This document shows positions 721-19,198 of a DNA stretch of 32,000 nt, one piece after another. The stretch comes from Clostridia bacterium. Lineage in GTDB: Bacteria > Bacillota > Clostridia > Oscillospirales > CAG-272. The position numbers and the translations under genes were made by a program. Position 1 is the first letter of the stretch. Each line of letters starts with the position of its first letter. The notes under the pieces were generated by a model. The model saw only the letters and a program-made list of their open reading frames with translations. It had not been told where the DNA came from and did not search any database. The stretch spans positions 22,593 to 54,592 of the forward strand of contig JAFUPC010000033.1 in NCBI GenBank assembly GCA_017481495.1, written 5' to 3'.

Positions 721-2952
721 ATGAAATTTGAACAGTGGAACGGCTTTTCTGCCGGTGTCTGGCAGGACAGCATCAATGTGCGCGACTTCATCCAGAAAAA
801 CTATACGCCGTATGAGGGGGACGAATCGTTCCTCGCACCGCCGACGGCGCGCACGCGGATGCTCAACGAAAAATTATCGGAGCTGCTGGCAAAGGAGCAT
901 GAACGCGGCGGTATTCTCGATGTCGATACCGAAACGGTCGCATCGCTCTGCTCATTTGCACCCGGCTATCTCGACCGGGACAATGAAATCATCGTCGGTC
1001 TTCAGACAGATGCGCCGCTCAAACGCGCGGTGAACCCGTTCGGCGGCATCAACATGACCCGCAAAGCCTGCAAGGCATACGGCTACGAGCTGTCGCAGAA
1101 GGTGGAGGACGAATTCAAGTTCCGCACCACGCACAATGACGGTGTGTTCCGCGTTTACAACGAAGCCATCCGCGCGGCACGCCACACGGGCATCATCACG
1201 GGTCTTCCCGATGCCTACGGCCGCGGACGCATCATCGGCGACTACCGCCGCGTTGCACTGTACGGTGTGGATGTTCTCATTGAACAGAAGAAGAAAGACA
1301 AGGCTGCCATTGCCTCTCACAATGTCCTGGCAGACGACATCCGCCGTCTGGAGGAGCTGTATCAGCAGATTGCGTTCCTGGAAAAATTGAAAGATATGGC
1401 GGCGATGTACGGTTATGACATTTCCGTTCCGGCAAAGGACTCCCGCGAAGCGGTGCAGTGGCTGTATTTCGGCTATCTCGGTGCCATCAAGGAGCAGAAC
1501 GGTGCGGCGATGAGCCTTGGACGCAACATGGCGTTCCTTGACATCTATTTTGAACGCGATCTGAAAGCCGGCATTTATGACGAGTGTGCCATTCAGGAGA
1601 TCATCGACGACTTTGTCATGAAGCTGCGCATGGCGCGGCATCTGCGTACGCCCGAATACAACGAGCTGTTTGCCGGCGACCCGATGTGGATCACGGAAGC
1701 CATCGGCGGTATGGGCGAGGACGGCAGAACGCTGGTCACAAAGTCCGCATTCCGCATTCTGCATACGCTTTACAACCTGAATCCCTCCGCAGAACCGAAC
1801 CTGACCGTGCTTTGGTCGAAAGACCTGCCCGCCGGTTTCCGCCGTTATGCCGCAAAGGTCTCCTGCGATACCGACTCCATCCAGTATGAAAACGACGACC
1901 TGATGCGCCGCAAGTTCGGCGACGACTACGCGATCGCGTGCTGTGTCTCGGCGATGCGTGTCGGAAAGGATATGCAGTTCTTCGGCGCGCGCGCGAATCT
2001 GGTCAAGCTGCTGCTTCTCTCGCTCAACGGCGGCAGAGACGAAAAGAGCGGAACGCAGATCGCGACTGCCGGAAAGCGGTTTGAGGGCGAATATCTGGAT
2101 TACGACACCGTCTGCACCCTGATGGACGAATACCGTCCATGGCTTGCCGAGACGTATGTCAAAGCCATGAACATGATCCACTATATGCACGACAAGTATG
2201 CTTATGAAAAGATCCAGATGGCACTGCATGACACCGATGTTCACCGCTTCATGGCGTTCGGTGTGGCGGGACTTTCCGTTCTGGCGGACTCGCTGTCGGC
2301 GATCCGGTATGCAAAGGTGCGTGTTATCCGCGACGAAACGGGACTGATCAAGGATTTTGAGACGGTCGGCGAATTCCCGAAATACGGCAACGATGACGAC
2401 CGTGTGGACAGCATCGCTGTAGAGCAGGTCGGAAAATTCTTCGATGCGCTCAAAGCCATTCCAACCTACCGCGATGCCGAGCATACGCTGTCGATTCTGA
2501 CCATTACCTCAAATGTAGTCTACGGCAAGAAGACCGGTTCCACGCCAGACGGCAGAAAAGCCGGCGAACCGTTTGCGCCCGGCGCGAACCCGATGCACGG
2601 CAGAGATGCTTCCGGTGCGCTCGCATCCCTCAACTCCGTTGCGAAGCTCTCCTATGATGTCTGCAAGGACGGCATTTCCAACACGTTCTGCATCATTCCG
2701 CAGGCGCTCGGTGCCGACGACGAATCCCGTTATGCAAATCTCTGCACCATCATTGACGGTTATTTCGGACAGGATGCACAGCACATCAACGTCAACGTCT
2801 TCAACCGCGATATGCTTCTTGATGCCCAGGCACATCCGGAAAAGTACCCGAATCTGACCATCCGTGTCTCCGGCTACGCGGTCAACTTCCACCGTCTGTC
2901 GAGAGAACAGCAGAATGAGGTCATCGCGCGTACTTTCCACGGCGCAATGTAA
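721..2952 (+). CDS. pflB: Pyruvate formate-lyase (formate C-acetyltransferase), a glycyl-radical enzyme
   Basis: 743-aa ORF. It has the C-terminal glycyl-radical motif [11 protein letters not shown] and the active-site Cys pair IACCVSAM. Length and overall sequence are typical of PFL. The activase gene lies immediately downstream. Confidence 0.95.
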
Positions 2953-2972
2953 ACCCGATACCGAACACACAA

Positions 2973-3007
2973 AAGGCGTACCGTTTCCGACAGTACGCCT
3001 TTATTTT
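2973..3007 (+). terminator. Hairpin plus T-tract between pflB and pflA (partial terminator)
   Basis: AAGGCGTAC (2973-2981) pairs with GTACGCCTT (2993-3001), a 9-bp perfect stem, followed by TTATTTT. pflA starts at 3018. Confidence 0.6.
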
Positions 3008-3017
3008 AGGAGAATTT

Positions 3018-5049: not shown

Positions 5050-5726
5050 TTAAGCAATGCTCCAGCCCTCTGCGTGTTCAATCGTTGCCAGACGATGCGC
5101 GATAACAACAACCGGTTTACCAACTGTCAATTCACTTATTGCCTGTTGAATCAAATGCTCATTTTCTGGATCGACGCTTGCAGTAGCTTCATCCAAAATA
5201 ATGATGGTAGCATTTTTCAAAATAGCTCTGGTAATGGATATACGCTGCTTTTCGCCGCCAGATAGAGAAGAACCACCCTCACCAACGGTTGTGTTATATC
5301 CATTAGGAAGCCGCATAATAAAATCATGGCATTGCGCTTTTTTCGCTGCTTGAACGACATCATCATGTGTCGCCGCCGGATTGCCAAAGCGTATATTATT
5401 CTCGATGGTATCATTAAACAAATACACTTTCTGGAATACCATAAAAATATTTAAAAAGCTATCGCAGGTCATTTTCCGTACATCCGCCTGACTAACCGAC
5501 ACTGTACCGCTGTTCACATCATAAAATCCTGCAATCAGATTACATATCGTTGTTTTTCCGCTGCCGGATGACCCGACAATGGCCGTTGTTGTCTGTTCGG
5601 GAATGGTAAAGTAATATCCTTTAATACGGCTCTATCATCATATCCGAAACTCACATGGTCAAAGCAAATATCGTATTTTTCAAGTTTAATATCTTTTCGC
5701 AACTTGCTATTGCAATTTGCGATTTT
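5050..5726 (-). pseudogene. Remnant of an ABC exporter ATP-binding domain, truncated at both ends and frameshifted
   Basis: Reverse-strand translation gives KDIKLEKYDICFDHVSFGYDDRAVLKDIT. A -1 frameshift follows in the T-run around 5607-5611. Reading then continues FTIPEQTTTAIVGSSGSGKTTICNLIAGFYDV (Walker A), LSGGEKQR (signature), IIILDEATASVD (Walker B) and VIAHRL. There is no transmembrane domain upstream: an in-frame TAA abuts the neighbouring gene's stop at 5727. The C-terminus diverges and stops right after AHRLATIEHA. The fragment is visibly AT-richer than its flanks. Confidence 0.8.
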
Positions 5727-6686
5727 TTATTTCTGTAATTCCATGATCGCCGGTTGCTTCTCAATCGCTCCGGGTAGATTCATTTTTTGTTCCAGATACT
5801 CCCTGAACTTCTCCCTCCCCTCCTCCGTCACACACGAAAACCGTTCCTCAATCATCGGATCATGAAGCCGCTGTTCTGCGCGCCGGCGTTCGCGGACGGC
5901 GTCGTCTTTGTTTTCAAAGGAGCCGAGATAGTAGCGCTTTTTCCGGAAATTGATGTAGGCGGTATACATTCCGGTGCGGGCGTTCTGGTAGACACCGGTA
6001 CAGCCGGTGGAGTTGTTGCGGCGAACGTTTTTGGCGGCGATGAGGGAACCGAGACAGGTGCCGTCGGTGATGTCGCGGCGATAAGAGGAACAATCCGCGC
6101 GGGAGGAGCGGTAGAGACAGCCGCAGGAGCGCACATGGCCGTGCCGGAGAACGCTGACGGAGTGAAACGCGGTGTTGCCGCAGTCGCACTGACATTTCCA
6201 GACAATGGAACCGCAGGAATCGCGGCGGTCGGTGGGAGAGAGCGCGACCAGGGAACCGAAACGCTCGCCGGTGATGTTTTCGGTGCGCATGGCGACCATG
6301 TGCTCCGTCAAAAGACAGCCGCAGGAGCGCGTGTTGCCCCATTTGACATTTGCCGCGGGAATGACGATCTCTTTGCCGCAGGTGCAAGAAAACGACCAGC
6401 AGTCCTGCTTTTTTTCATTATAATATTGAAAGGAACGGGCGGTCAGGCGGCCGAAAACCTGACCGGAAATGTCCCGGGGCGCACCGCGCGTGCGGCGCAT
6501 ACAGCCACAGCTTTGCGTGTGCCCATTGCGCAGATACATCGCGGGCACTTCTTTTTCCCGTCCGCAGTCGCAGACACAGCGCCAGATGACCCCACGCCGT
6601 CCCTCCGAGCGCAGAGGTTCCATCGCCGTGAGAAGACCGAATTTCTGTCCTGTCAGATCGTTTTTCATGTTACCGTCTCCCGTCAT
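5727..6686 (-). CDS. AP2-domain DNA-binding protein with three N-terminal CxC...CGC zinc-ribbon repeats
   Basis: 319-aa ORF. A more likely start is ATG 6668 (MKNDLTGQKFG), preceded by GGGAGACGG. There are three repeats of G(Q/E)xFGxLxA...WxCxCxCGxxxxV...GHxxSCGC. The C-terminus STGCTGVYQNARTGMYTAYINFRKKRYYLGSFENKDDAVRERRRAE matches the AP2/ERF-type fold signature (GV..x..GKW.A.I...gk...LG.F...eeA), as seen in phage and mobile-element proteins. Confidence 0.7.
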   Translation of the reverse strand: MTGDGNMKNDLTGQKFGLLTAMEPLRSEGRRGVIWRCVCDCGREKEVPAMYLRNGHTQSCGCMRRTRGAPRDISGQVFGRLTARSFQYYNEKKQDCWSFSCTCGKEIVIPAANVKWGNTRSCGCLLTEHMVAMRTENITGERFGSLVALSPTDRRDSCGSIVWKCQCDCGNTAFHSVSVLRHGHVRSCGCLYRSSRADCSSYRRDITDGTCLGSLIAAKNVRRNNSTGCTGVYQNARTGMYTAYINFRKKRYYLGSFENKDDAVRERRRAEQRLHDPMIEERFSCVTEEGREKFREYLEQKMNLPGAIEKQPAIMELQK

Positions 6687-6713
6687 TTTTATAATTTTGA
6701 CGGTTGGGTTTCG

Positions 6714-7081
6714 TAAAGCATATTACTTTGCGCTTTATCGCCAAATATCGCGATAATTTTGCGCAATTTCAACAGGTTTCTCCGCGATGCGCCGTCAAAC
6801 GACGGCTTTGGGGCGGTTTCGTTTTTATATTCTGACAGCTTATTTCTGGAATTTTTCTCGCATTATAACAAATGGTAAGAATTTCCACGTTCCGCGCGCA
6901 GAAGAGCCCGGATTTCTGACGGCGGACTGACGGCGATGACCCGAAATTCACGGATTTTTTGTGAGCATTTTGTGAACAAACGGGAAATTATGACGGATTT
7001 TGTTGCAAAATCTTTGATTTTATGATACAATATGAATCATAAAGAACGACGGAATACGGTTGCGCAAAGTAATATGCTTTA
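6714..7081. repeat. Perfect 20-bp inverted repeats bracketing a 328-bp AT-rich promoter-bearing segment
   Basis: The left arm is TAAAGCATATTACTTTGCGC (6714-6733). The right arm is GCGCAAAGTAATATGCTTTA (7062-7081), its exact reverse complement. The flanking bases do not extend the match. The segment sits between the divergent AP2 gene and the giant surface-protein gene. Confidence 0.9.
7003..7031 (+). promoter_or_regulatory. Promoter P1 (inside the IR-bracketed segment), pointing toward the giant gene
   Basis: TTGCAA at 7003-7008, a 17-bp spacer, then an extended -10 TGaTACAAT (TACAAT at 7026-7031). Confidence 0.55.
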
Positions 7082-7134
7082 AGCAAGAATAAACAAATAA
7101 AATGTACGAAAATAATATTATGAACATAAAACAG

Positions 7135-7163
7135 TTGATTTTTGCGCGGGATTGTGCTATAAT
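7135..7163 (+). promoter_or_regulatory. Promoter P2 (outside the IRs) for the giant gene
   Basis: TTGATT at 7135-7140, a 17-bp spacer, then an extended -10 TGcTATAAT (TATAAT at 7158-7163). About 105 nt of leader precede ATG 7275. Confidence 0.65.
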
Positions 7164-7274: not shown

Positions 7275-10200
7275 ATGAAAGCTTTTTCAATGAAGCGGTT
7301 CACGGCTTTGATGTTGTGCTTGCTCATGCTCATCGGATGTTTGCCGGTGAATGTGTTGGCAGTAGAACCTCGCAGTTCTGAAACCGTTCTTGATGCGGCG
7401 ATTTTCTGCTCTGATGTACATGATAATCCGAGTACAGTCACTTCGGTATTTAATGGCATCAAGTCGGCAGATTCAACATTTGCCCCGACAACAGCTGCAT
7501 TTGTGGGCGATACACAGACAACTGCAAGCAGTGTCACATCTGCGGCACATGAAGTGTATTCTGACGTGCAGTGTATATATGCTTTCGGCAATCATGATGA
7601 CGAGGGCGATTATGGTATCGATGATTTCACCGGCTTGAGTTACGGTGATAGTACTACGAATTATTATATTTATACTATCAGTGAAAATTCGATGAGTAGC
7701 AGTAGTCCAGATACTTCCAATTTTACATCTACTGTCGCAGGTCTTGACAAGACCAAACCGTTATTTATTATTTCTCATATGCCTTTGCACGCACGCAGAG
7801 GTGATAATAACGGTGCGGCGGCATGGTATACTGCCATTTCTGCCGCGGCTAAACAAATGGATATTGCGTTCTTCTGGGCGCATAACCATACTTCTGAAAG
7901 TAATGTTGATACAGCCGCGTATTATATTGCAAAAAATGGTAGTGAAACTATCTCTATTCAGGGCGGTTCTACCGTAACACCCAATTTTACTTATCTGAAT
8001 GCAGGATACATCGATCCTCCGAATACACCTGCACGCAACAAAGTTGCTACTGCAGTTCGTATTTACGATGATAGCATCAATTATACTGTGTATAATGCGG
8101 ACGGTGAATTGAGTGGAACTTATGCGGTTAATGAGACTGTACCGCGTGCGTTTGCTTCTAGTACTGATTCCGGTTCTGGTGACACTGATAACGGCACCAC
8201 CAAGGAAGTCTACGTTCTTGTTGACACCATGACCGTCGGCGAGGATTATCTGATTGCTAACGGCAACACCGACATGGTCACTCTGCTTGGTCAGAGCAGT
8301 GGTTCCGCTGATACTACTACCGCAACGGTGGTTACTAGTGGTGACTACACTTATATCGAGAAAGCCGATTCCGGTTATGTCTGGAATGCTACGGCACATA
8401 CCAATAGCAGTTATTCCAGTTATCCCAGACTGATTAACGCAGAGACTTATGCCATGTACGCAAGTAGCGGTTCTTTGGCATTCAGTAGCAGTTTAACTAG
8501 CACCAGCGGTGCTGTTTATACCCGTTACTGGACATATTCCGATGGTCAGCTCGCTTGTGTTTCTACGAACAGCGACAGTACCACCTATTATCTGACCTAC
8601 AGCGATGGTTACTCTATGACTTCCACCGCTACGGATGGTATCTATATCTACGAGAAGCAGACCATCACGGTCAGTTCCGACGGCACTGTCTCGGGCGGCG
8701 ATTCCTCCGACGGTTCCACCGAGACTGTTGTAGGTGGTGCAACTGTTACCACCGCAGACGATGGTTCTTTCCAGAAGGTATCCACCACGGAAAAGAAGAC
8801 TGTTTATGTGCTGACCAGCAGCATTACTTCCGGTACTTCTTATCTGATTGTCAACGGTAATTCCGCAGGAAGTTATTATGCTCTGGCGAATAACAGCGGT
8901 TCGGTTGCGGCAACCGGTGTAACTGTCAAGACAGACAGCACAATCGGTGCATATATCGAACTTACGGATGCGACCGATGATGAGCTTTGGACTGCGAGCG
9001 GTAGCAGTTCTACTTCTCTGAAAAATGGTAGTTACTACCTGACTTATAGTGGTTCTAACAGTAACTATTCTTTGGACTTGTCAACAAGTTCTACGAGTTC
9101 TACGAGTTGGACATATTCGTCCAATAGATTATCTATTGTTCCTAAAAGAACTACTTATTATCTTGTTTATGATTCTGGTTGGGACATGAGTAGTTCTTCT
9201 GATAATATCTACTTCTACGTTCCCACTGAAGTTGACGGTAGTGTTACCTACTCCGTCACCGCCTCCGACATCGAACACATCTACGATTCGGACGATTCTA
9301 CCGCGGAAACGGAAACCATCGTAGCAAAAACAAATGCTTCTGAAGGCACCTACTCCTATGCAATCGTCTCCGACGAATCCGGTATCATTGACACCGCAAA
9401 TACGACCGGTTCCACCCTCTCATTCACAGGCGAAGCCGGTACTGCGACTGTCCGTGTATACTACACGTTTATTACGAAAGATGGTACAGAGTACAAGATC
9501 TGGGACACCATCACCGTCACCGCAACGTATCCTTATTACACTGTTGACATCACACATAATTCCGATGGTACGGGGGCAGAGGGAACGACTTCCGATTATG
9601 TTTCCGTTACCGATACGATTTCGATCAAAGGCGTGGAAGCAAATGACACATATGACCTTTGGGCGAAAGTATATCTCAACGGTGAAACAGAACAAACTGT
9701 TGAAAGCAGTAAACTGACTTGGAATTCCAATAATACCGCTGTTGCAAAAGTCGATTCTGACGGTAATGTCACATTCATCGGAGAAGAGGGAACTGTACAG
9801 ATTACCGTTTATTACGCATATACCAACAATGAGGGCGAGACCGTACAGGCAACAGACGTTGTGACGTTCTCCGTATCCAAAAATAATTACGTTATCCCCT
9901 CCGACGGCACCAACGACTTCCCCGAATACCCCAACGAAGGCGCAATCCGTTTCGACAAAACTGCGACCGCGGTCGGTAACTTCTCCGAAACCGGTATCGC
10001 ACAGGTTGAACTGTCTATGACGGGTGTACCGTATTCGACCGGTTCCGAGATTGACGTTGTCATTATGCTGGATATGACAGGTTCCATGTCCAGTACAGCA
10101 ATGACTGCGGCAGAAGAATCCGCAATTGCTTTTGCAGAGCAGATCGTCAAAAACGAGGACGGCACTTACAATAACAATCGTATTGCTGTTCTGGCATTCA

Positions 10201-13200
10201 ACAGTGGTAACAGTTCGCCATACACATACTGGGAGTTGGGAACTATCTCCGCTGACCAATGGGATTCTTTCTGCACCGCAGTCCGTGGTGCGAGTGATGA
10301 CCAGGAATCCGGTGGTACACCTTATGACGAAGCTCTTGAGAAGTGTCAGCAAATCCTGACTGCCGCCAAGACCGACGGCATCGGCAATGACCGCCAGCAG
10401 TTCTGCGTTTTCGTATCCGACGGTGGTCCTACATCTTATAAGTACATCACCAACTATGATGCAGTAAAAGCCGGCACTGCTACAAGTTATACCAATTCTA
10501 CTGCAAGTGCAAGCGGTGGTTCCAATCAGTCTGACAGCAACTTTGCAACCATCGCCACTTACACTCACGAGTATTACTCCACGCTGATGAAAGACGACGG
10601 CGTGACGATGTACTCTGTTCTTACCGGTTTGTCGGCAGACGATTATCCGAACTGTACGACGATTCTGCAGAACATCGCTTCTGATTCCAGTAAGGCTTAT
10701 GTAGTTGAAGATGGCAGTGATACGACTGCATTAAAAGGCGCATTTGCGAATATCGCCCTCGAAATCAAACAAGCCGCAACCAATGTTGTTGTCGAAGACA
10801 AGATTGACTCCCACTATACCGTAAACTTCGCACTCCCCACCGGTGTCACAAGTACCGAAGCTGGAATGAGCGAATTTTACATCCAGGCGGTTCAGTATAC
10901 GCTTGACAGTAACAAAGAACGTACTGGTGACCCGGCCGTTCTTGAAAACTTCACGTTCAACGCAGATGGCACGCTTAAGAGCCATACGGTTGACGGTGTA
11001 ACTTGTACAGATTGCACGCATGTAACCATCACTGATGGCATTGTAACCAAGATAGATGGTACATACTTCGATTATGAAGTAACAAGTGAAGGCGAGTTCT
11101 TCAACTGGTATGCAGATAAGCTTGATACAACCGAGCTTGCGCTCCAGTATTTCGTTTATCTTGATAAGTCTGCAGGTTATAATGTAGATGATCAGGTTGC
11201 GGCAGGTACTTACAATACCAACGAATACGCAACGATTACTTACACAAACTTCAATGGTAATAAGTGCCAGCAGGAATTCCCAGTTCCGCAGTTAACTTGG
11301 AATGGCGCACAAGTAACCTATGTGTTTTATTTAGTGAATGAAAATGGTGAGCCTGTTAACCGTGCCGGGAAAGTCGTTCCGTTTGCAGAAGCTGTATATG
11401 TAACAACTCCGTATACATATGCTGTAACTTGGAATGAACTGGAAGGACAAGAAAAAATGCTTGCACAAGATTTGTATGCAAGCGCAAAAGTACCTGACGT
11501 TTATACATTGTATGACACAAAAGCATACTATGAAATCCGAGTATATGAAACAGAATCGGTAGATAATGGAACAACAAAGAATAATGATTATTTCATTATT
11601 GAAGGTTCTACGAGCGGTTTGAAATCGTATGAAACTACCAAAGTGTTTAACACCAAGGCAGATACAAAGTACGATGATTACGGTGCATACTCTGCAACAG
11701 CAGGTACTTATACCTCCACAAAATCCAATACATCTTACGAAGCAACCGTAACTACCGACATCGACTACGCCAATACCACAGTCGCATTCGCTGTCGTCTG
11801 GAAACCCGCACTGGTCGAAGATACCGTTGTCATCGACTTCGGTCTCGATGTCGTCATTGATGTCTACACCAACGACGGTCTCGCGGCAGGTGTTACGGGT
11901 GTTATGCTGAATGCTCCGTCCAGCGTTACCATCAACAGCGGTACATATACAACCGCAGTTGGTTCCGATTCTGTCAAAAGTTCCGATGGCGTCTGGACTG
12001 CATCCAAGGAAAATCTGACCTCCGTCCGCTTCCATCTGAACAACATGGAAATCGACGAACCCGCAGTATTCTACTACGAAGCCGGTGTCAACTACTACAC
12101 CTACGATGCAAGCAACAACGCAACCCTCAACACGACGAATATGTATTCGTCCGTCACAGTCATCCCGGCTACGACGATTTATTATGAGGATGATTTTGTA
12201 GAATTAAGTTCTTATACCATTACGTATGATGAAGCAGGAAATGTGACTTCAACAACTCCTGATGAAAATACTCAGTGGACAAGCATCGGCACAACAATCA
12301 ATGATACCCAGGACGTTGACCGCCCCGGCGTTTCCCAGGCAATGAGCGCGGCATATGATGCCAACAACCTCTACGGCTACGACAGCGCATACGATTCAAT
12401 GAGTACGTATTCTATGGGTAGCGCAAAACAAGTAAAAGTTGATGCAGACCATTTTGCAAATGCGACATTTGAATTTTATGGTACTGGTTTTGATGTAATC
12501 AGTATGACGGACAAAACATCAGGTGCAATAACTGTTACAGTGACTGGTGCCGATGGAACCTCAGAATCTTATTTCGTAAATAACTATTATGGTTATGCTT
12601 ATGAAAATGGAGAATGGGTTGCTGTGGATAGTGCTTCTCCGAATGCGCTTTATCAAGTTCCTGTTATGAAAGTAAGTGGACTGACTTACGGAAAATATAC
12701 AGTTACGATAAAAGCCGCGTATAATTCGATCTTTGATAAGACGGATGATATTGAAGGAGAAAGCAACGATAACGCATATACGTTCATTCTCGATGCAATT
12801 CGTATTTATGACCCCACCGGAAATGTAAATGATATTGCAAACGATGCATACGGAAAAGATGATGAAGCATGGCCGCAGTACATTGAACTGCGTAACAACA
12901 TTATTGCTGCATCGAATTACACTGTAACAGAAAATGAAGATGGAACTGTTACTGTAAGCGGAACAGATTTGAGCGGTGCTATCTTTATTGATGGTAACAA
13001 TGAAACAACGAGTATTGCCGATTATGTAAGTTACGGTCCTAATAATGAACTGTATCTTGATGCCAAACAGTCTGTTGCGTTCAAACTCAATCCGACATAC
13101 GCTTCTAACATTGCAGATGTTCAGATTGGTTTGAAGGTTGCAAATGGTGGTTCTGTAAGTTATAAGATTTATGATTCGGATACAACAGCAGAAACCGCCA

Positions 13201-13775
13201 AGACGATAAACACCGCTACCGATATGTATTACAGTATTAAGGACATTTCGTCCGGAACTGTTGTAATTACAAATACCGGAACAACAAGTGGAATTCTTTC
13301 CATCACAAATATTAAGATTACATATACGCAGAATCCTTATGGAAAATCTGAAAGTGATCTTGATGAGCCGATGACAACAAGCCTTTACATGGATGAAGTC
13401 AGTGCAACCTCTGCATTGATGAGTCTGCGTAGTGTCAGTGTCGAAGAACCGGAAGAAGAAATTTTCGTCCCCGAATCTTTCGATGTCCGCGTTTCTTCCA
13501 AGTCTGTCAAAGTCGGTCAGAAGTTCAGCGTGATCATCACGACCTCCGCTGACGTGGAAAGTGTTTCCGTCAACGGTCAGACCGTCACCAAGTACAAGGA
13601 AAACCGGAAAACCGGTGTCCGTACCTGGTCGGTACAGATGACCGCCGCCGAAGCCGGTGACATGACGATCTCCGCTGTTGCATACGATGCCGACGGCATT
13701 GCAAGCGAAGCGGAAGAAACTGTTGTCACGGTTGCGGAAAAGAACAACAAAAACAACAAGAAAAACAAGAAGTAA
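7275..13775 (+). CDS. Giant (2,166 aa) secreted or lipoprotein-like multidomain surface protein. It comprises a metallophosphoesterase, two tandem ~150-aa modules, Big_2-like Ig domains, a vWA domain and a long beta-rich region.
   Basis: - Start: chosen at ATG 7275, with a GGGAGA SD at 7262-7267. The track start at 7221 has none.
- Signal peptide: MKAFSMKRFTALMLCLLMLIGC, with a possible lipobox LIGC or an SPase I site VLA/VEP.
- Calcineurin-like phosphoesterase motifs: SDVHD, VGDT, GNHDDE, SHMPLH, AHNH (about 7390-8050).
- Tandem modules: they begin VYVLVDTMTVGEDYLIANGN (8205-8660) and VYVLTSSITSGTSYLIVNGN (8800-9225), each with YYLTYS and IY(I/F)Y.
- Big_2-like domain: KLTWNSNNTAVAKVDSDGNVTFIGEEGTVQITV (about 9709-9810).
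- vWA domain: MIDAS-like IDVVIMLDMTGSMS and FVSDGGPT (about 10045-10770).
- C-terminus: no LPXTG and no C-terminal TM. It ends in a basic tail, EKNNKNNKKNKK. Confidence 0.85.
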   Translation: MKAFSMKRFTALMLCLLMLIGCLPVNVLAVEPRSSETVLDAAIFCSDVHDNPSTVTSVFNGIKSADSTFAPTTAAFVGDTQTTASSVTSAAHEVYSDVQCIYAFGNHDDEGDYGIDDFTGLSYGDSTTNYYIYTISENSMSSSSPDTSNFTSTVAGLDKTKPLFIISHMPLHARRGDNNGAAAWYTAISAAAKQMDIAFFWAHNHTSESNVDTAAYYIAKNGSETISIQGGSTVTPNFTYLNAGYIDPPNTPARNKVATAVRIYDDSINYTVYNADGELSGTYAVNETVPRAFASSTDSGSGDTDNGTTKEVYVLVDTMTVGEDYLIANGNTDMVTLLGQSSGSADTTTATVVTSGDYTYIEKADSGYVWNATAHTNSSYSSYPRLINAETYAMYASSGSLAFSSSLTSTSGAVYTRYWTYSDGQLACVSTNSDSTTYYLTYSDGYSMTSTATDGIYIYEKQTITVSSDGTVSGGDSSDGSTETVVGGATVTTADDGSFQKVSTTEKKTVYVLTSSITSGTSYLIVNGNSAGSYYALANNSGSVAATGVTVKTDSTIGAYIELTDATDDELWTASGSSSTSLKNGSYYLTYSGSNSNYSLDLSTSSTSSTSWTYSSNRLSIVPKRTTYYLVYDSGWDMSSSSDNIYFYVPTEVDGSVTYSVTASDIEHIYDSDDSTAETETIVAKTNASEGTYSYAIVSDESGIIDTANTTGSTLSFTGEAGTATVRVYYTFITKDGTEYKIWDTITVTATYPYYTVDITHNSDGTGAEGTTSDYVSVTDTISIKGVEANDTYDLWAKVYLNGETEQTVESSKLTWNSNNTAVAKVDSDGNVTFIGEEGTVQITVYYAYTNNEGETVQATDVVTFSVSKNNYVIPSDGTNDFPEYPNEGAIRFDKTATAVGNFSETGIAQVELSMTGVPYSTGSEIDVVIMLDMTGSMSSTAMTAAEESAIAFAEQIVKNEDGTYNNNRIAVLAFNSGNSSPYTYWELGTISADQWDSFCTAVRGASDDQESGGTPYDEALEKCQQILTAAKTDGIGNDRQQFCVFVSDGGPTSYKYITNYDAVKAGTATSYTNSTASASGGSNQSDSNFATIATYTHEYYSTLMKDDGVTMYSVLTGLSADDYPNCTTILQNIASDSSKAYVVEDGSDTTALKGAFANIALEIKQAATNVVVEDKIDSHYTVNFALPTGVTSTEAGMSEFYIQAVQYTLDSNKERTGDPAVLENFTFNADGTLKSHTVDGVTCTDCTHVTITDGIVTKIDGTYFDYEVTSEGEFFNWYADKLDTTELALQYFVYLDKSAGYNVDDQVAAGTYNTNEYATITYTNFNGNKCQQEFPVPQLTWNGAQVTYVFYLVNENGEPVNRAGKVVPFAEAVYVTTPYTYAVTWNELEGQEKMLAQDLYASAKVPDVYTLYDTKAYYEIRVYETESVDNGTTKNNDYFIIEGSTSGLKSYETTKVFNTKADTKYDDYGAYSATAGTYTSTKSNTSYEATVTTDIDYANTTVAFAVVWKPALVEDTVVIDFGLDVVIDVYTNDGLAAGVTGVMLNAPSSVTINSGTYTTAVGSDSVKSSDGVWTASKENLTSVRFHLNNMEIDEPAVFYYEAGVNYYTYDASNNATLNTTNMYSSVTVIPATTIYYEDDFVELSSYTITYDEAGNVTSTTPDENTQWTSIGTTINDTQDVDRPGVSQAMSAAYDANNLYGYDSAYDSMSTYSMGSAKQVKVDADHFANATFEFYGTGFDVISMTDKTSGAITVTVTGADGTSESYFVNNYYGYAYENGEWVAVDSASPNALYQVPVMKVSGLTYGKYTVTIKAAYNSIFDKTDDIEGESNDNAYTFILDAIRIYDPTGNVNDIANDAYGKDDEAWPQYIELRNNIIAASNYTVTENEDGTVTVSGTDLSGAIFIDGNNETTSIADYVSYGPNNELYLDAKQSVAFKLNPTYASNIADVQIGLKVANGGSVSYKIYDSDTTAETAKTINTATDMYYSIKDISSGTVVITNTGTTSGILSITNIKITYTQNPYGKSESDLDEPMTTSLYMDEVSATSALMSLRSVSVEEPEEEIFVPESFDVRVSSKSVKVGQKFSVIITTSADVESVSVNGQTVTKYKENRKTGVRTWSVQMTAAEAGDMTISAVAYDADGIASEAEETVVTVAEKNNKNNKKNKK

Positions 13776-13789
13776 GGAGGGTACTGACC

Positions 13790-14038
13790 TTGAAAAAGCT
13801 TTACACAAAGCCGGAAATCACATTTGAAGATTTTACCCTCAACACTTCTATTGCGGGAGATTGTGAAGTAAAAACACATACACCTGCTGCTGAACAATGT
13901 GGTATTGCATTCGGTGATATAAACATTTTCTTGGATGGAAATGAAGGCTGTACCACAACAATTATTGATGGATCGAAAGATTTTGATGGTCTTTGTTACC
14001 ATGTACCAACCGAGACCAACAACCTCTTCAACTCCTAA
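13790..14038 (+). CDS. 82-aa acidic 4-Cys peptide with no signal peptide; candidate RiPP precursor
   Basis: TTG start at 13790, 9 nt after a strong SD AGGAGG (13775-13780). Sequence: MKKLYTKPEITFEDFTLNTSIAGDCEVKTHTPAAEQCGIAFGDINIFLDGNEGCTTTIIDGSKDFDGLCYHVPTETNNLFNS. Cys residues are at 25, 37, 54 and 69, and the C-terminal residue is Ser. An intrinsic terminator follows immediately, then the rSAM/PqqD genes. Confidence 0.6.
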   Translation: MKKLYTKPEITFEDFTLNTSIAGDCEVKTHTPAAEQCGIAFGDINIFLDGNEGCTTTIIDGSKDFDGLCYHVPTETNNLFNS

Positions 14039-14062
14039 CCCCTAACCCCCGAAAACCGAACA

Positions 14063-14093
14063 AAGCCGCACCCATCGGCGGTGCGGCTTTTTC
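14063..14093 (+). terminator. Intrinsic terminator after the peptide gene
   Basis: GCCGCACC (14065-14072) pairs with GGTGCGGC (14080-14087), an 8-bp GC-rich stem, followed by TTTTT (14088-14092). AAA on the 5' side makes it potentially bidirectional. Confidence 0.75.
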
Positions 14094-14209
14094 ATTCTTA
14101 AATAGATATGATCGATAACCTCCATTCTGCCGAGAAATACGCGAAATATCCTTGATTTAATGGATAGTGACAGGTTATCGAACATATCTAATGCCGACAC
14201 GAGGTGCTT

Positions 14210-14983
14210 ATGAACGCAAAAACATCCAAAAAACGAAAAGGGAACCGCGCGGTGCTGTGGTGCTGTCTCGGCGCGGTTGTGGTTCTGCTGGGGCTGACCG
14301 TTTATCTGGCACTGACCTCCCGCGGGAATGTCGCTGATGCGGAACCGGACATCGACGGAACGGGCGGTACGCCTGTTGTCACGGCCTCCATTAACACGGC
14401 GGCGGAAGAAATTCCGCTTGTCACCGGGACGAAGCAAACCCTTGTCATCTGCGACATGGGCAGCTATGCGGGTCTGTACATGGAAGACGGCTCCGACGAA
14501 ATCGTCTCCGGCGTGATGATGATCATTGTCGAAAATGTCTCCGCCTCCGACCTGCAATACGCGGAAATTTCGCTCTCCTACGAAGACGGTACGACCACTG
14601 CGTTTTCCGTCTCGACCCTACCGGCGGGAGAAAAAGCGGTGCTTCTCGAAAAGAACCGTCTCTCCTATCCCGGCGATGGGGTGAAACCAACCTCCGCTCT
14701 GGTCTCGAACGTTGTTCTCTTTGACACGCCGATGACCCTGTGCGACAGCGTTCTGGAGATCATCGGCCTGGACGGCGCGCTGAACGTGCGCAACGTCTCG
14801 GACGAAGACCTTGACGGCGACATCTATATCTGCTACAAAAACGCCGCGTCGGATCTGTACTACGGCGGTATCACCTACCGCGTGAAGATCGAGGGCGGTC
14901 TTTCCGCGGGTGAGCTGCGGCAGGTCATGACGGGACATTATACCGTCTCCGGCAGCAAAATCGTCATGGTGGAATGCCGATGA
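14210..14983 (+). CDS. Bitopic membrane protein of unknown function (basic N-terminus, one TM, extracytoplasmic domain with an internal duplication)
   Basis: The start is probably ATG 14210 (the track GTG is at 14204), with GAGG at 14201-14204. The sequence begins MNAKTSKKRKGNRAVLWCCLGAVVVLLGLTVYLAL (the TM). Two similar segments follow: VENVSASDLQYAEISLSY...LPAGEKAVL and VRNVSDEDLDGDIYICYK...LSAGELRQV. The stop overlaps the next gene's start by 10 nt. Confidence 0.6.
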   Translation: MNAKTSKKRKGNRAVLWCCLGAVVVLLGLTVYLALTSRGNVADAEPDIDGTGGTPVVTASINTAAEEIPLVTGTKQTLVICDMGSYAGLYMEDGSDEIVSGVMMIIVENVSASDLQYAEISLSYEDGTTTAFSVSTLPAGEKAVLLEKNRLSYPGDGVKPTSALVSNVVLFDTPMTLCDSVLEIIGLDGALNVRNVSDEDLDGDIYICYKNAASDLYYGGITYRVKIEGGLSAGELRQVMTGHYTVSGSKIVMVECR

Positions 14984-15864
14984 CGAGAGAAACCTGTTAC
15001 CGCATCGGCGGCATTCCGGTATCCGTGCGCATGACGGGCGACGATGTTTTCACGGACGATGGCGTGCTTCTGCCGTTTGCGGAAACCGACACGCCTGCGC
15101 CCGCGCACCGGTACGACATCGTCTGCACCGACACACTGCCAAAACCGACGGGGAACTGCATTTATCATGACCCCGCAAAGCGCGTTTATCTGTCGGATGA
15201 CGGCAAAACGCAGACCCGGTATGTCGGTGCGGTCGGCGAAACCGCCGCCGGCGCATATCTGTGCATTCAGCGAAACGCAAGGGAAACACTTGTCCTTTAC
15301 AAAGGCACCCGCATCACACCGAAAACCGTGCTGTCCTCCCTGGAAGCGGAGCATCTCATCACCGTACACGCGGGGATTCTTTTGCACGCATCGTGTATCC
15401 GATACGAAAACCGCGCGATCCTGTTCACCGCCCCCTCCGGAACCGGAAAATCGACCCAGGCGGATCTCTGGAGCGCCCACCGTCACGCCGAACTCATCAA
15501 CGGCGACCGCGCGGCGGTCTTTTCCCCGGAAACCGACGGCGGCATCCGTGTCCGCGGCATTCCGTATGCCGGAAGCTCCGGTGTCGCACGGTGCGCCGAT
15601 CTGCCGCTTTGGGCGATCGTCTATCTCTCACAGGCAAAGGAAAACACCGTCCGCCGTCTCACGGGACAGGCCGCGTTCCGCGCGGTCTGGGAAGGATGCA
15701 GTGTCAATACCTGGTCAAAAGACGATGTCACCGCCGCCGCCGACACGGTGATGCGCCTCGTCTCGGGCGTTCCCGTCCTGTCGCTTGCCTGCACCAAAGA
15801 CGTCCGCGCCGTGGAAACGCTGGAACACGCGCTGGAAACCGACCGGAAAGGAGTCAACGTTTAA
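14974..15864 (+). CDS. HPr-kinase-like P-loop protein (HprK C-terminal-domain-related)
   Basis: 296 aa. The segment LLHASCIRYENRAILFTAPSGTGKSTQADLW resembles the HPr kinase/phosphorylase nucleotide-binding segment (hG..v...g.gvLi.G.SG.GKS). The gene is embedded between the membrane protein and the rSAM gene. Confidence 0.6.
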   Translation: MPMTRETCYRIGGIPVSVRMTGDDVFTDDGVLLPFAETDTPAPAHRYDIVCTDTLPKPTGNCIYHDPAKRVYLSDDGKTQTRYVGAVGETAAGAYLCIQRNARETLVLYKGTRITPKTVLSSLEAEHLITVHAGILLHASCIRYENRAILFTAPSGTGKSTQADLWSAHRHAELINGDRAAVFSPETDGGIRVRGIPYAGSSGVARCADLPLWAIVYLSQAKENTVRRLTGQAAFRAVWEGCSVNTWSKDDVTAAADTVMRLVSGVPVLSLACTKDVRAVETLEHALETDRKGVNV

Positions 15865-15869
15865 CCGAT

Positions 15870-16997
15870 ATGCAGAAAAAACAAACCGAACCCTATCTTT
15901 CCACCTATCTGCACAGCAAAGGCGCGAAGCTCGGTCTTCCCATCGGCGGGAATTTCGAGCTGACCTCCCGCTGTAACTTCCGCTGTCCGATGTGTTACGT
16001 CCACAATGCCGAAAACGACAGCGAAGCCAAACGGCGGGAGCTTTCCGCCGCAGAATGGATTTCCCTTGCCAAACAAGCGCGCGACCGCGGTATGGTCTTT
16101 GCACTGCTCACCGGCGGGGAACCGTTCGTCAGGCGCGATTTCTTTGAAATTTATCACGCCATGAAAGAAATGGGGATCCTCGTTTCCATCAATTCAAACG
16201 GGTCGCTTCTGGACGGCGAGATCCGCGAAAAGCTGTTTGAAGACCCGCCGTTCCGCGTGAATGTCTCCCTTTACGGGGGATGCGAGGAGACCTACCGTTC
16301 CATGTGCGGACAACCTGTCTTTGAAAAGGTCGTTGACAATATCCGTACTCTGAAAGAACGCGGCATTGATGTCCGGCTGAATCTGTCGATCACGCCGTAT
16401 AACTGTCATGACATCGGGAAAATCTATGAGATCGCAAGCGCGCTGAATGTCCACGTCAAGGCGACCGCCTATATGTACCCGCCCATCCGCGTAAACGGCG
16501 AACAATACGGAACCGGTGTCCGTCTGTCTCCGTCGGAAGCGGCGAAATATATGGTCTCCTGGGACAAAATGCGCTTCACAAAGGAAGAATTTCTCGCGCG
16601 TGCGGAAAATATGCGCAATCTTTGTTCTGTGAACACGCGGGAATGTGCGGCGGATATGGAGGAGGGGGTGTCCTGCCGTGCGGGTTCCTCCGCGTTCTGG
16701 ATCTGCTGGGACGGGTGGATGCTCCCCTGCGGAATGATGCCGGGGCCTGCGGTTGATCCTCTGCGCGACGGTTTCGATGCCGCGTGGGACGAATTGCGGC
16801 AGAAGACCGCGGAGATCCGGATGCCGCACGGGTGCGGAACCTGTCCGAAACGCGATGTCTGTCCCGTGTGCGCGGCGGTGTGTGTGACCGAAACCGGTGC
16901 ATTCGACCGCACGCCAGAATTTGTCTGTGCATCCACAGATGCACTTCTCACCGAAACCGAACTTGCAGCAAAGGAGATGGAACCCCATGCAGATTAA
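15870..16997 (+). CDS. Radical SAM / SPASM-domain peptide-maturase-like enzyme
   Basis: The true start is ATG 15870 (MQKKQTEPYL...). The 578-aa track ORF from 15261 overlaps the previous gene in another frame. It has the radical SAM cluster motif TSRCNFRCPMCY. The C-terminal auxiliary-cluster Cys pattern is CRAGSSAFWICWDGWMLPC ... CGTCPKRDVCPVCAAVC, which is SPASM-type (CxxCx5Cx2-3C). Confidence 0.85.
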   Translation: MQKKQTEPYLSTYLHSKGAKLGLPIGGNFELTSRCNFRCPMCYVHNAENDSEAKRRELSAAEWISLAKQARDRGMVFALLTGGEPFVRRDFFEIYHAMKEMGILVSINSNGSLLDGEIREKLFEDPPFRVNVSLYGGCEETYRSMCGQPVFEKVVDNIRTLKERGIDVRLNLSITPYNCHDIGKIYEIASALNVHVKATAYMYPPIRVNGEQYGTGVRLSPSEAAKYMVSWDKMRFTKEEFLARAENMRNLCSVNTRECAADMEEGVSCRAGSSAFWICWDGWMLPCGMMPGPAVDPLRDGFDAAWDELRQKTAEIRMPHGCGTCPKRDVCPVCAAVCVTETGAFDRTPEFVCASTDALLTETELAAKEMEPHAD

Positions 16998-17247
16998 AAA
17001 AGAATTCGTCCGGCGCGACGTCGCCGGAGAGACGATCCTCGTCCCGTTCGGAAAAACCATTTACGACGCAAACGGACTGTTCGTTTTGAGCGAACTCGGC
17101 GCCTTTTTGTGGGACAGGATCCCGGATGCGGAGAATGAGGAAACGCTGGTGCGCGCGGTACTGGAAGAATATGAGGTGGACGAAGCCACCGCACGGGCGG
17201 ATATCGCGGAATTTCTTGGAAAGCTCCGGGAGATGGGAATTCTGTGA
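16987..17247 (+). CDS. PqqD-family protein (stand-alone RiPP recognition element)
   Basis: 86 aa from ATG 16987, with an AAGGAG SD at 16971-16976. It overlaps the rSAM stop by 11 nt. Sequence: MQIKKEFVRRDVAGETILVPFGKTIYDANGLFVLSELGAFLWDRIPDAENEETLVRAVLEEYEVDEATARADIAEFLGKLREMGIL. This fits the typical PqqD pattern (..LN..g..iW..l.......l...l...Y.vd......Dv..Fl..L...gll). Confidence 0.85.
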   Translation: MQIKKEFVRRDVAGETILVPFGKTIYDANGLFVLSELGAFLWDRIPDAENEETLVRAVLEEYEVDEATARADIAEFLGKLREMGIL

Positions 17248-17273
17248 AAACCCCGGACTGAACCGAAAAAACA

Positions 17274-17901: not shown

Positions 17902-17982
17902 AATTCCTACACGAAATATAGGAATTAACCCTTGACAAAATGCGCATTCTGTGGTATAATTCCTACTGTAAGAATAGGAATT
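17902..17982 (+). promoter_or_regulatory. nifS promoter flanked and overlapped by two copies of an AATTCCTA-N9-TAGGAATT operator
   Basis: Operator 1 is AATTCCTA (17902-17909) / TAGGAATT (17919-17926). The promoter is TTGACA (17932-17937), a 17-bp spacer and TGgTATAAT (TATAAT at 17955-17960). Operator 2 is AATTCCTA (17958-17965, overlapping the -10) / TAGGAATT (17975-17982); it extends to a 10-bp arm, ATAATTCCTA/TAGGAATTAT. Confidence 0.7.
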
Positions 17983-18010
17983 ATACCATTGTTCATTGGA
18001 GGTAACATCC

Positions 18011-19198
18011 ATGTTTGTATATGCAGACAACGCGGCGACGACAAAAATGAGTCCGACCGCAATCAAGGCCATGACGGAAGCGATGGAAACGGTCTGGGGC
18101 AACCCGTCCAGTCTTCACACCACCGGCCAGACGGCAAAGGAAGCACTGGAAAACGCGAGGGGGACGATCGCTTCGCTGCTCGGCGCGGAACCGCGGGAGA
18201 TCTATTTCACCTCCGGCGGCTCGGAAGCGGACAACCAGGCGATCCTTTCGGCGGCGATCAATGGTGCAAAGAAAAACAAATAGTACATCATTTCCACCGC
18301 ATTTGAACATCATGCGGTTCTCCATACGCTGAAAAAGCTGGAAAAGCAGGGTTATGAGATCGAACTTCTGGACGTGCATGAAAACGGCATCGTCACAGCG
18401 GAACAGGTCAGAGGAGCCATCCGTCCCGATACCGCGCTTGTCACTGTGATGTATGCAAACAATGAGATCGGTACCATCCAGCCCATCCGGGAAATCGGTG
18501 CAGTATGCCGCGAGATGGGTGTTCCGTTTCACACGGATGCTGTGCAGGCGGTCGGGCACATTCCGGTCAACGTCAAAGAGGACAACATTGATATGCTGTC
18601 TGTTTCCGCACACAAGTTCCACGGTCCCAAGGGCATCGGCGTTCTGTACGCAAAACGCGGCACCATCCTCTCCAACGTCATCGAAGGCGGCGCACAGGAG
18701 CGCGGCAAACGTGCGGGCACGGAAAATATGCCGGCGATCGTCGCAATGGCGGCGGCAATGAAAGAAGCCGTTGAAACGATGGATGCAGTGAACGCAAAGA
18801 TCATCCCGATGCGTGAAAAGCTGATCGAGGGTCTTGAAAAGATCCCGCACAGCAAGCTCAACGGCGACAGAAATAGCCGCGTTCCGGGTACGGTCAACTT
18901 CTGCTTTGAGGGCATTGAGGGCGAATCTCTGCTTCTGATGCTTGATGAGGAGGGCATTGAAGCATCCTCCGGTTCTGCCTGCACCTCCGGCTCTCTCGAC
19001 CCCAGCCATGTTTTGCTGGCACTCGGTATGCCGCATGAGGTCGCACACGGTTCTCTGCGTCTCTCCATCTGCGAAAACAACACCGATGAGGAGATCGACC
19101 ACATTCTGCGTGTCGTTCCCGAAGTCGTTTCTTATCTGCGCAATATGTCTCCCGTCTGGGAAGCACTCGAATCCGGCGAAAAGCCGCATCTTATCTGA
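18011..19198 (+). pseudogene. nifS: Cysteine desulfurase (NifS/IscS class V aminotransferase) interrupted by one in-frame TAG at 18281-18283
   Basis: The start is ATG 18011, with a GGAGG SD at 17998-18002. The two track ORFs (17996-18283 and 18374-19198) are in the same frame. The interval between them translates without stops as [39 protein letters not shown], which is canonical NifS sequence. Also present are [10 protein letters not shown] (PLP Lys) and SSGSACTSG (catalytic Cys). Confidence 0.8.

Follow-up and report, generated by a model that had tools for sequence, protein, structure and literature searches.

The RecV-dependent switches of Clostridioides difficile (cwpV, flgB, cmrRST and pdcB) are intergenic, have inverted repeats (IRs) of about 20 bp, and depend on a tyrosine recombinase encoded elsewhere; invertases acting in trans are common. 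Invertible segments (invertons) upstream of surface-protein genes are already known, including in the Clostridia (PMC5903667, PMC5386303, PMC11892184). The capsular-polysaccharide invertons of Bacteroides contain an invertible promoter, followed by the regulator UpxY as the first gene and then by surface-structure genes (PMC11892184). More than 75% of the PhaseFinder invertons are shorter than 300 nt (PMC11602134), and Clostridia-like genomes have a median of three invertons (PMC11892184). The locus described here is part of a 32,000-nucleotide stretch of DNA (the window) from an NCBI metagenome-assembled genome (MAG) labelled 'Clostridia bacterium' (locus tags IJ449_), which belongs to a ruminant-gut metagenome series. 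A 368-bp unit bounded by perfect IRs is located in this window between an AP2-like gene and a giant surface-protein operon. The unit is read here, with somewhat better than even confidence, as a promoter inverton; flipping was not seen at this locus. Since the adjacent AP2-like gene has relatives that carry switches of a known type, the unit is most likely a promoter switch of that type.

The left arm of the repeat (TAAAGCATATTACTTTGCGC) is at 6714-6733 on the plus strand; 46 bp separate its outer end from the start codon (ATG) of the AP2-like gene. Sequence comparison placed the right arm, an exact reverse complement of the left one, at 7062-7081 on the minus strand. The two arms agree at 20/20 positions and are 328 nt apart, which gives the 368-bp unit. 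Extended outward, the arms are similar over 25 nt at 92% (6709-6733 and 7062-7086), with 3/5 of the outer positions matching; on the inner side the similarity ends abruptly. The original prediction had stated that such a perfect 20-bp repeat could not plausibly have arisen by chance in 32 kb, and this was borne out. Matches to the arm with up to three mismatches appeared in 0 of 100 dinucleotide-preserving shuffles, and only the two arms match at this level in the window. The repeat is also the longest perfect IR of the window (gap 30-2000 bp), the runner-up being 14 bp long, and the longest perfect IRs in 30 block-shuffled windows measured 12-18 bp. The 20-mer has weak internal dyad symmetry only (AAAG-N7-CTTT). 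An assembly artefact was ruled out, as two large-k-mer assemblies run unbroken through the 20-bp repeats. A degenerate third copy of the repeat (16/20 matches, 15/16 in the core) was found at 5604-5623 (TGGTAAAGTAATATCCTTTA on the plus strand). It is on the minus strand, in the orientation of the right arm, inside an ABC ATPase pseudogene. Together with the left arm it brackets the AP2-like gene in inverted orientation, being on the far side of that gene. A match of this quality is expected in about 3% of shuffled windows, and the third copy is a probable coincidence because it encodes the conserved ABC motif VLKDITL.

The position of the segment, between the AP2-like gene (5727-6668, minus strand) and the giant surface-protein operon, was confirmed as originally described. 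Its interior (6734-7061), the putative invertible segment, is 328 bp of non-coding DNA with a longest open reading frame (ORF) of 60 aa, and is within the usual size range of invertons. Its GC content falls from 46% in the left part to 32% in the right. A sigma-70-like scan listed six promoter-like sites in the region, compared with 1.7 ± 1.4 in shuffles. The site P1 (TTGCAA-17-TGaTACAAT, 7003-7031, plus strand), which has an extended -10, ends 30 bp inside the right arm and points outward to the giant operon. A weaker promoter-like site (TTGAAA-17-GATATT, 6744-6772, minus strand) is 10 bp from the left arm and points outward to the AP2-like gene. The predicted payload is therefore orientation-dependent, with outward-facing sigma-70-like sites beside both arms. 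A further site, P2 (TTGATT-17-TGcTATAAT, 7135-7163, plus strand), is outside the repeats and 112 nt before the ATG of the giant gene. The original prediction had named both plus-strand promoters, one aimed at the giant gene and one beyond the repeats, and the scan recovered both as consensus sites. It had also named an extended -10 on the minus strand at 6862-6870. The element (TGTTATAAT) can be read there by eye, but it has a poor -35 and is not listed by the scan. The short direct repeats which it had noted in the interior are present as well (CGGATTT three times, ACGGATTTT and TTTTGTGA twice each). The palindrome TTGCGCAA has just two copies in the 32 kb, one in the interior (6759-6766) and one at 7060-7067, which begins 2 bp inside the interior and extends into the right arm; the sequence TTTGCGC occurs at 7141-7147 within the spacer of P2. 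These sequences could be a small operator motif, or they could be due to chance.

The precedent for a switch was found among homologues of the AP2-like protein with 33-41% identity, a set of 74 loci from species-representative genomes. Long IR pairs are present within 700 bp upstream in 10 of the 61 AP2-like loci which have enough upstream sequence. Two or three copies of an 18-31-bp repeat precede the AP2-like homologue in L020-L025, L028 and L042. The repeat is CATGACATAAT-N4-ATTATGTCATG at all of these loci except L042, which has the shorter ACATAAT-N4-ATTATGT. Its proximal copy precedes the start by about 15-50 bp in L021-L025 and L028, but by about 200 bp in L042. The segment between the repeats is about 150 bp long and bears TTGAAA-17-TGnTAnnAT. 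Comparison by blastn showed that, relative to the gene, L028 and L022 have this segment in the 'plus' orientation, and L021, L023 and L025 have it in the 'minus' orientation. The asymmetric centre of the repeat is reverse-complemented between copies (ACTG and CAGT in L028), and the repeats are therefore true inverted sites. These paired palindromes at first resembled a precedent for operators, but they flank segments found in both orientations and so favour the inverton reading. In L025, three copies of the CATGACATAAT-type repeat were found at 2670-3010, and the initial 20 bp of the gene region are duplicated there in inverted orientation (TCTTTCTCCATATGCAAAAT at -234 and -12); these features suggest nested or successive inversions at one locus.

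In L006 (657-1568), L023 (1901-2806) and L042 (1591-2439), a tyrosine recombinase gene of about 300 aa (PF00589, E = 6e-22 to 5e-27) stops just a few bases short of the distal repeat. For example, L006, which belongs to an Oscillospiraceae MAG in the same ruminant collection, contains in order a recombinase, a 29-bp repeat, 264 bp, one or more further repeats, two AP2-like genes, and a giant secreted protein bearing Flg_new repeats. The IR-flanked promoter segments are at 2782-2975 in L028, 2784-2986 in L023 and 1572-1918 in L006. The genes downstream encode giant secreted proteins (L006, L023) or epimerase/dehydratase-type polysaccharide enzymes (L024, L028), and the AP2-like genes recurrently adjoin giant secreted proteins or the cassette found in the window. 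By comparative criteria, the IR-flanked segments of these relatives are invertons, and the AP2-like family is often the first gene behind the putatively invertible promoter. The arrangement of IR, recombinase and AP2-like gene looks like an undescribed inverton-regulator module in the Clostridia; no paper linking AP2 proteins with invertons was found in a literature search. The relatives' switches possibly belong to the Clostridia-dominated inverton group which was linked to tyrosine recombinases (PMC11892184).

Judged from its sequence, the unit in the window is built like an inverton, with a short non-coding interior between perfect IRs, promoter-like sites that face outward, and a regulator-like gene on one side and a giant surface-protein operon on the other. 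Such an inverton would probably switch P1 back and forth between the giant operon and the AP2-like gene. The 328-bp interior would be flipped by recombination at the 20-bp arms, carried out by a recombinase, probably of the tyrosine type, whose gene would be elsewhere in the genome. As assembled, P1, the best internal promoter-like site, would drive transcription through the right arm toward the giant VWA/radical-SAM operon, which would also keep the basal conserved P2, and transcription from the weaker promoter-like site would run through the left arm toward the AP2-like gene. After a flip, transcripts from P1 would cross the left arm and enter the AP2-like gene, with a leader of about 89 nt. 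For the relatives in the ON state (L028, L022), a leader of about 70-80 nt was read, with the -10 ending about 35 nt inside the proximal repeat; the flipped geometry would, by analogy, be the ON-state geometry of these related loci. The assembled P1 points away from the AP2-like gene, as in 5 of 7 relatives, and 'away' in the window would mean toward the giant operon. Such a switch would toggle promoter strength between two divergent units and would not simply turn the operon on or off. The AP2-like DNA-binding protein, a probable regulator of surface-protein genes, is the likelier primary target because of the analogy with the relatives.

Orthologous operons are informative about the role of P2. 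Three orthologous cassettes (L002, L003 and L004) encode a giant protein with 45-53% identity and have about 200-350 bp upstream. By reading, a sigma-70-like promoter precedes the start of the giant gene by 90-113 nt in each of them (TTGATT-17-TATAAT in L002, TTGACA-17-TATAAT in L003, and TTGACA-17-TACAAT in L004), and P2 is the positional equivalent of these promoters. The IR-bounded unit is lineage-specific extra DNA upstream of the operon's own promoter, because these orthologous giant operons are without the element. Since the conserved P2 is outside the repeats, the segment cannot be the sole on/off control of the operon.

Several observations weigh against an inverton in the window. Only two public assemblies carry the locus, both of them in the same orientation, and neither has a contig break at the repeats. 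The scaffold_8222 in ENA (L001) is identical to the window. The second ENA assembly (ERZ28018670, contig k141_1138638; L091) is one single-nucleotide polymorphism (SNP) from it, and its interior has the orientation of the window over the 280 bases read. The shared orientation is weak evidence against a high-frequency mixed population, and is uninformative on low-frequency flipping. No recombinase was found among the ORFs of the 32-kb window, and no long IR is present upstream of the giant gene in L002, L003 or L004. P2, being outside the switch, limits its effect on the operon. The 20-mer of the window is unrelated in sequence to the relatives' repeats, the precedent comes from the homologues of 33-41% identity only, and no long repeats were found near the closest homologues of 54-60% identity. 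The promoter calls are consensus matches only, and the direct repeats of the interior are at chance level, as many being found in 14-20% of dinucleotide shuffles; they were accordingly rejected as phased binding sites. The original inverton proposal thus keeps its anatomy and gains a precedent in the relatives, whereas the opposite orientation was not seen in the two assemblies, the window contains no recombinase, and the three orthologous operons have no such element. The SNP of L091 (C/A at window position 6680) is the sole difference over 1455 bp, and it changes the ribosome-binding site of the AP2-like gene from GGGAG to GTGAG.

The same structure might also be a static insertion resembling a miniature inverted-repeat transposable element (MITE), with 18-bp terminal IRs and a TA target-site duplication in the style of IS630/mariner, which landed upstream of the operon promoter and carries its outward promoter-like sequence incidentally. 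The unit would be about 364 bp, AT-rich, without coding capacity and with terminal inverted repeats but no transposase; moreover, the three orthologous operons have no long IR in their 200-350 bp upstream, and their conserved promoter corresponds to the one just beyond the element, which is what the insertion of an additional piece would give. The 18-bp reading of the arms leaves TA on both sides. However, this flank is uninformative because TA is its own reverse complement, so that the 'duplication' is indistinguishable from an extension of the IR. No direct duplication of 1-10 bp was read outside the 20-bp arms, and a similarity that decays outward (3/5) and stops dead inward is the reverse of typical transposon ends. 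Neisseria Correia elements and the pneumococcal RUP are small non-coding TA-flanked units with terminal IRs, which can carry outward promoters. Such elements form multi-copy families, whereas in the collections searched the present unit has no further copy. The original prediction had named other copies of the 20-mer in the genome as the check for a MITE; the part of the genome covered here, the 32-kb window, has no exact one beyond the two arms. The exact 20-mer had no match in 185,579 species-representative genomes and the JGI metagenome contigs; the two-arm pattern was likewise absent from these metagenome contigs, and the exact 18-mer from the IMG/VR viral contigs. The element showed no similarity to phages and plasmids by blastn and no match to the 93 fetched loci by blastn and nhmmer, and with up to four mismatches the 32-kb window holds no second copy besides the 16/20 match at 5604-5623. 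A MITE-like insertion is held to be unlikely. An insertion sequence was ruled out, as the 328-bp interior has no transposase ORF.

The arms might instead be paired recognition sites, most plausibly for the AP2-like protein itself, which would bracket or loop the divergent promoter region without rearrangement. This protein resembles the DNA-binding modules of HNH-AP2 enzymes with no nuclease detected, which suits a long asymmetric site; the arms are 348 bp apart, and the left one is close to the start codon of the AP2-like gene (46 bp). The degenerate third copy just downstream of that gene, the two copies of TTGCGCAA, both within the element, and the TTTGCGC in the P2 spacer also agree with a binding role. 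However, operators rarely need 20/20 identity, and perfect, sharp-edged arms suggest recombinational homogenisation or a recent duplication. The paired repeats of the relatives flank segments found in both orientations beside recombinases, binding by the AP2-like protein is putative, and the third copy is explained by the ABC motif that it encodes. Paired sites of this kind seem improbable. A neutral relic, either a junction duplication left by the rearrangement which truncated the ABC gene and relocated the AP2-like gene, or a long-range 20-bp RNA stem in a long leader of the AP2-like mRNA, is very unlikely. The region has been rearranged, because the AP2-like gene, which is at the 3' end of the cassette and co-directional with it in the closest relatives, is here upstream and divergent beside a truncated, frameshifted ABC pseudogene. 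However, no mechanism predicts a perfect 20-bp inverted duplication that flanks exactly the promoter region. The single-strand fold of the element closes on the 20-bp stem (z = -3.15), but the z-score is owed to the stem alone, and beyond a weak site no promoter was found that places both arms in one transcript. A search of the element against Rfam gave a sub-threshold chance match only.

The AP2-like gene (5727-6668, minus strand) encodes 313 aa, with three Cys-rich repeats and a C-terminal AP2-like module. The label 'AP2 domain' of the original prediction needs some qualification: PF00847 is below threshold in the protein itself (E = 0.11), whereas its homologues carry PF00847 and the protein matches PHROG families that represent the DNA-binding modules found in HNH-AP2 homing endonucleases. 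Domain searches detected no nuclease domain. The family is large and unannotated, with more than 6,500 homologues. Its closest members, with 54-60% identity (L079-L090 and L093), adjoin the downstream end of the same radical-SAM/PqqD cassette, immediately follow a radical SAM gene, or form tandem arrays behind giant surface proteins, and the AP2-like gene is therefore a recurrent partner of such loci. The GC content of the gene (58%) is that of the neighbouring housekeeping genes, the window mean being 51%; a foreign GC island that brought the element along was thus ruled out. A plus-strand antisense ORF of 284 aa (5862-6716) over this GC-rich gene was called as the gene instead in the ENA assemblies, and it is probably a spurious call. 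Downstream of the AP2-like gene is an ABC-transporter ATPase remnant (5050-5726, minus strand), truncated and frameshifted. It contains the nucleotide-binding domain alone, with the frameshift between the VLKDITLPFP and EQTTTAIVGSSGSGKTT segments, and it lacks the transmembrane part, as if cut where the AP2-like gene ends.

On the other side of the segment, the giant gene (7275-13775, plus strand) encodes a secreted protein of 2166 aa. A signal peptide and a VWA domain were found in it, in agreement with the original description as a giant surface protein. It is the first member of a conserved cassette (7275-17250) which also includes proteins of 82 aa and about 260 aa, a ScmC-like protein, a radical SAM/SPASM protein and PqqD. 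The same cassette is present in L002, L003, L004 and L079-L082, where the second protein has 82-84 aa; the ScmC-like protein is HprK-related. The AP2-like gene is at the 3' end of the cassette in some relatives. The cassette looks like a peptide- or protein-modification system tied to the giant surface protein, and no published description of it (ScmC with radical SAM) was found in a literature search. Just beyond the AP2-like gene at the cassette end, a MobA/MobL relaxase and a large serine recombinase were found in L079 (4555-6915), and an IS110-type transposase in L085 (4280-4735); the cassette may be at the edges of mobile DNA. Farther along the window, the cysteine desulfurase between Rrf2 and NifU (17932-19198) appears to be split into two ORFs (17932-18306 and 18374-19198), the second of which matches Aminotran_5 positions 122-370. 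A frameshift, or else an error of assembly, may account for this.

If flipping does occur, an uncultured Clostridia bacterium of the ruminant gut would phase-vary a giant VWA adhesin-like protein and its radical-SAM peptide-modification cassette, with an AP2-like DNA-binding protein either mediating this variation or taking part in it. In a wider form of the proposal, one invertible promoter would alternately drive a homing-endonuclease-derived AP2-like regulator or a giant adhesin/radical-SAM operon, and the family would consist of Clostridial phase-variable master regulators of surface structures, first genes behind invertible promoters with an UpxY-like function; this is a tentative and rather doubtful extension. 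The more interesting by-product is the link between homing-endonuclease-derived AP2-like proteins and invertible promoters. The family-level pattern would give a role to this unannotated family, and would supply a sequence-only prior for inverton calling in Clostridia MAGs.

The likeness between the locus and the UpxY invertons of Bacteroides is a functional analogy only, as the phylum, the promoter type, the IR motifs and the regulator family are all different. The RecV switches of C. difficile are similar in having a short IR-flanked intergenic segment upstream of surface or signalling genes, and they are from the same class, Clostridia. However, the cwpV and flgB switches operate on leader RNA and have their fixed promoter upstream, whereas the fixed promoter of the window is downstream of the switch. 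Moreover, the C. difficile switches use RecV, and no RecV homologue was identified in the 32 kb of the window. The switches of the AP2-like relatives (L006, L020-L025, L028 and L042) share more with the locus: the same gene family at 33-41% identity and the same repeat-plus-AP2 architecture, an IR pair around a promoter segment of 130-320 bp with the proximal arm tens of bp from the start, a promoter at one end firing across an arm, and surface-protein or polysaccharide genes nearby. They differ in that their repeats are 18-31-bp near-palindromes (…ACATAA-spacer-TTATGT…), to which the window 20-mer is unrelated, and in that both orientations and adjacent recombinases were seen there and not at the window locus. 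The AP2-like gene of the relatives is co-directional with the surface genes, whereas the switch in the window would be placed between divergent units. If the unit is indeed an inverton, its new features would be the unrelated repeat sequence and the divergent 'toggle' layout.

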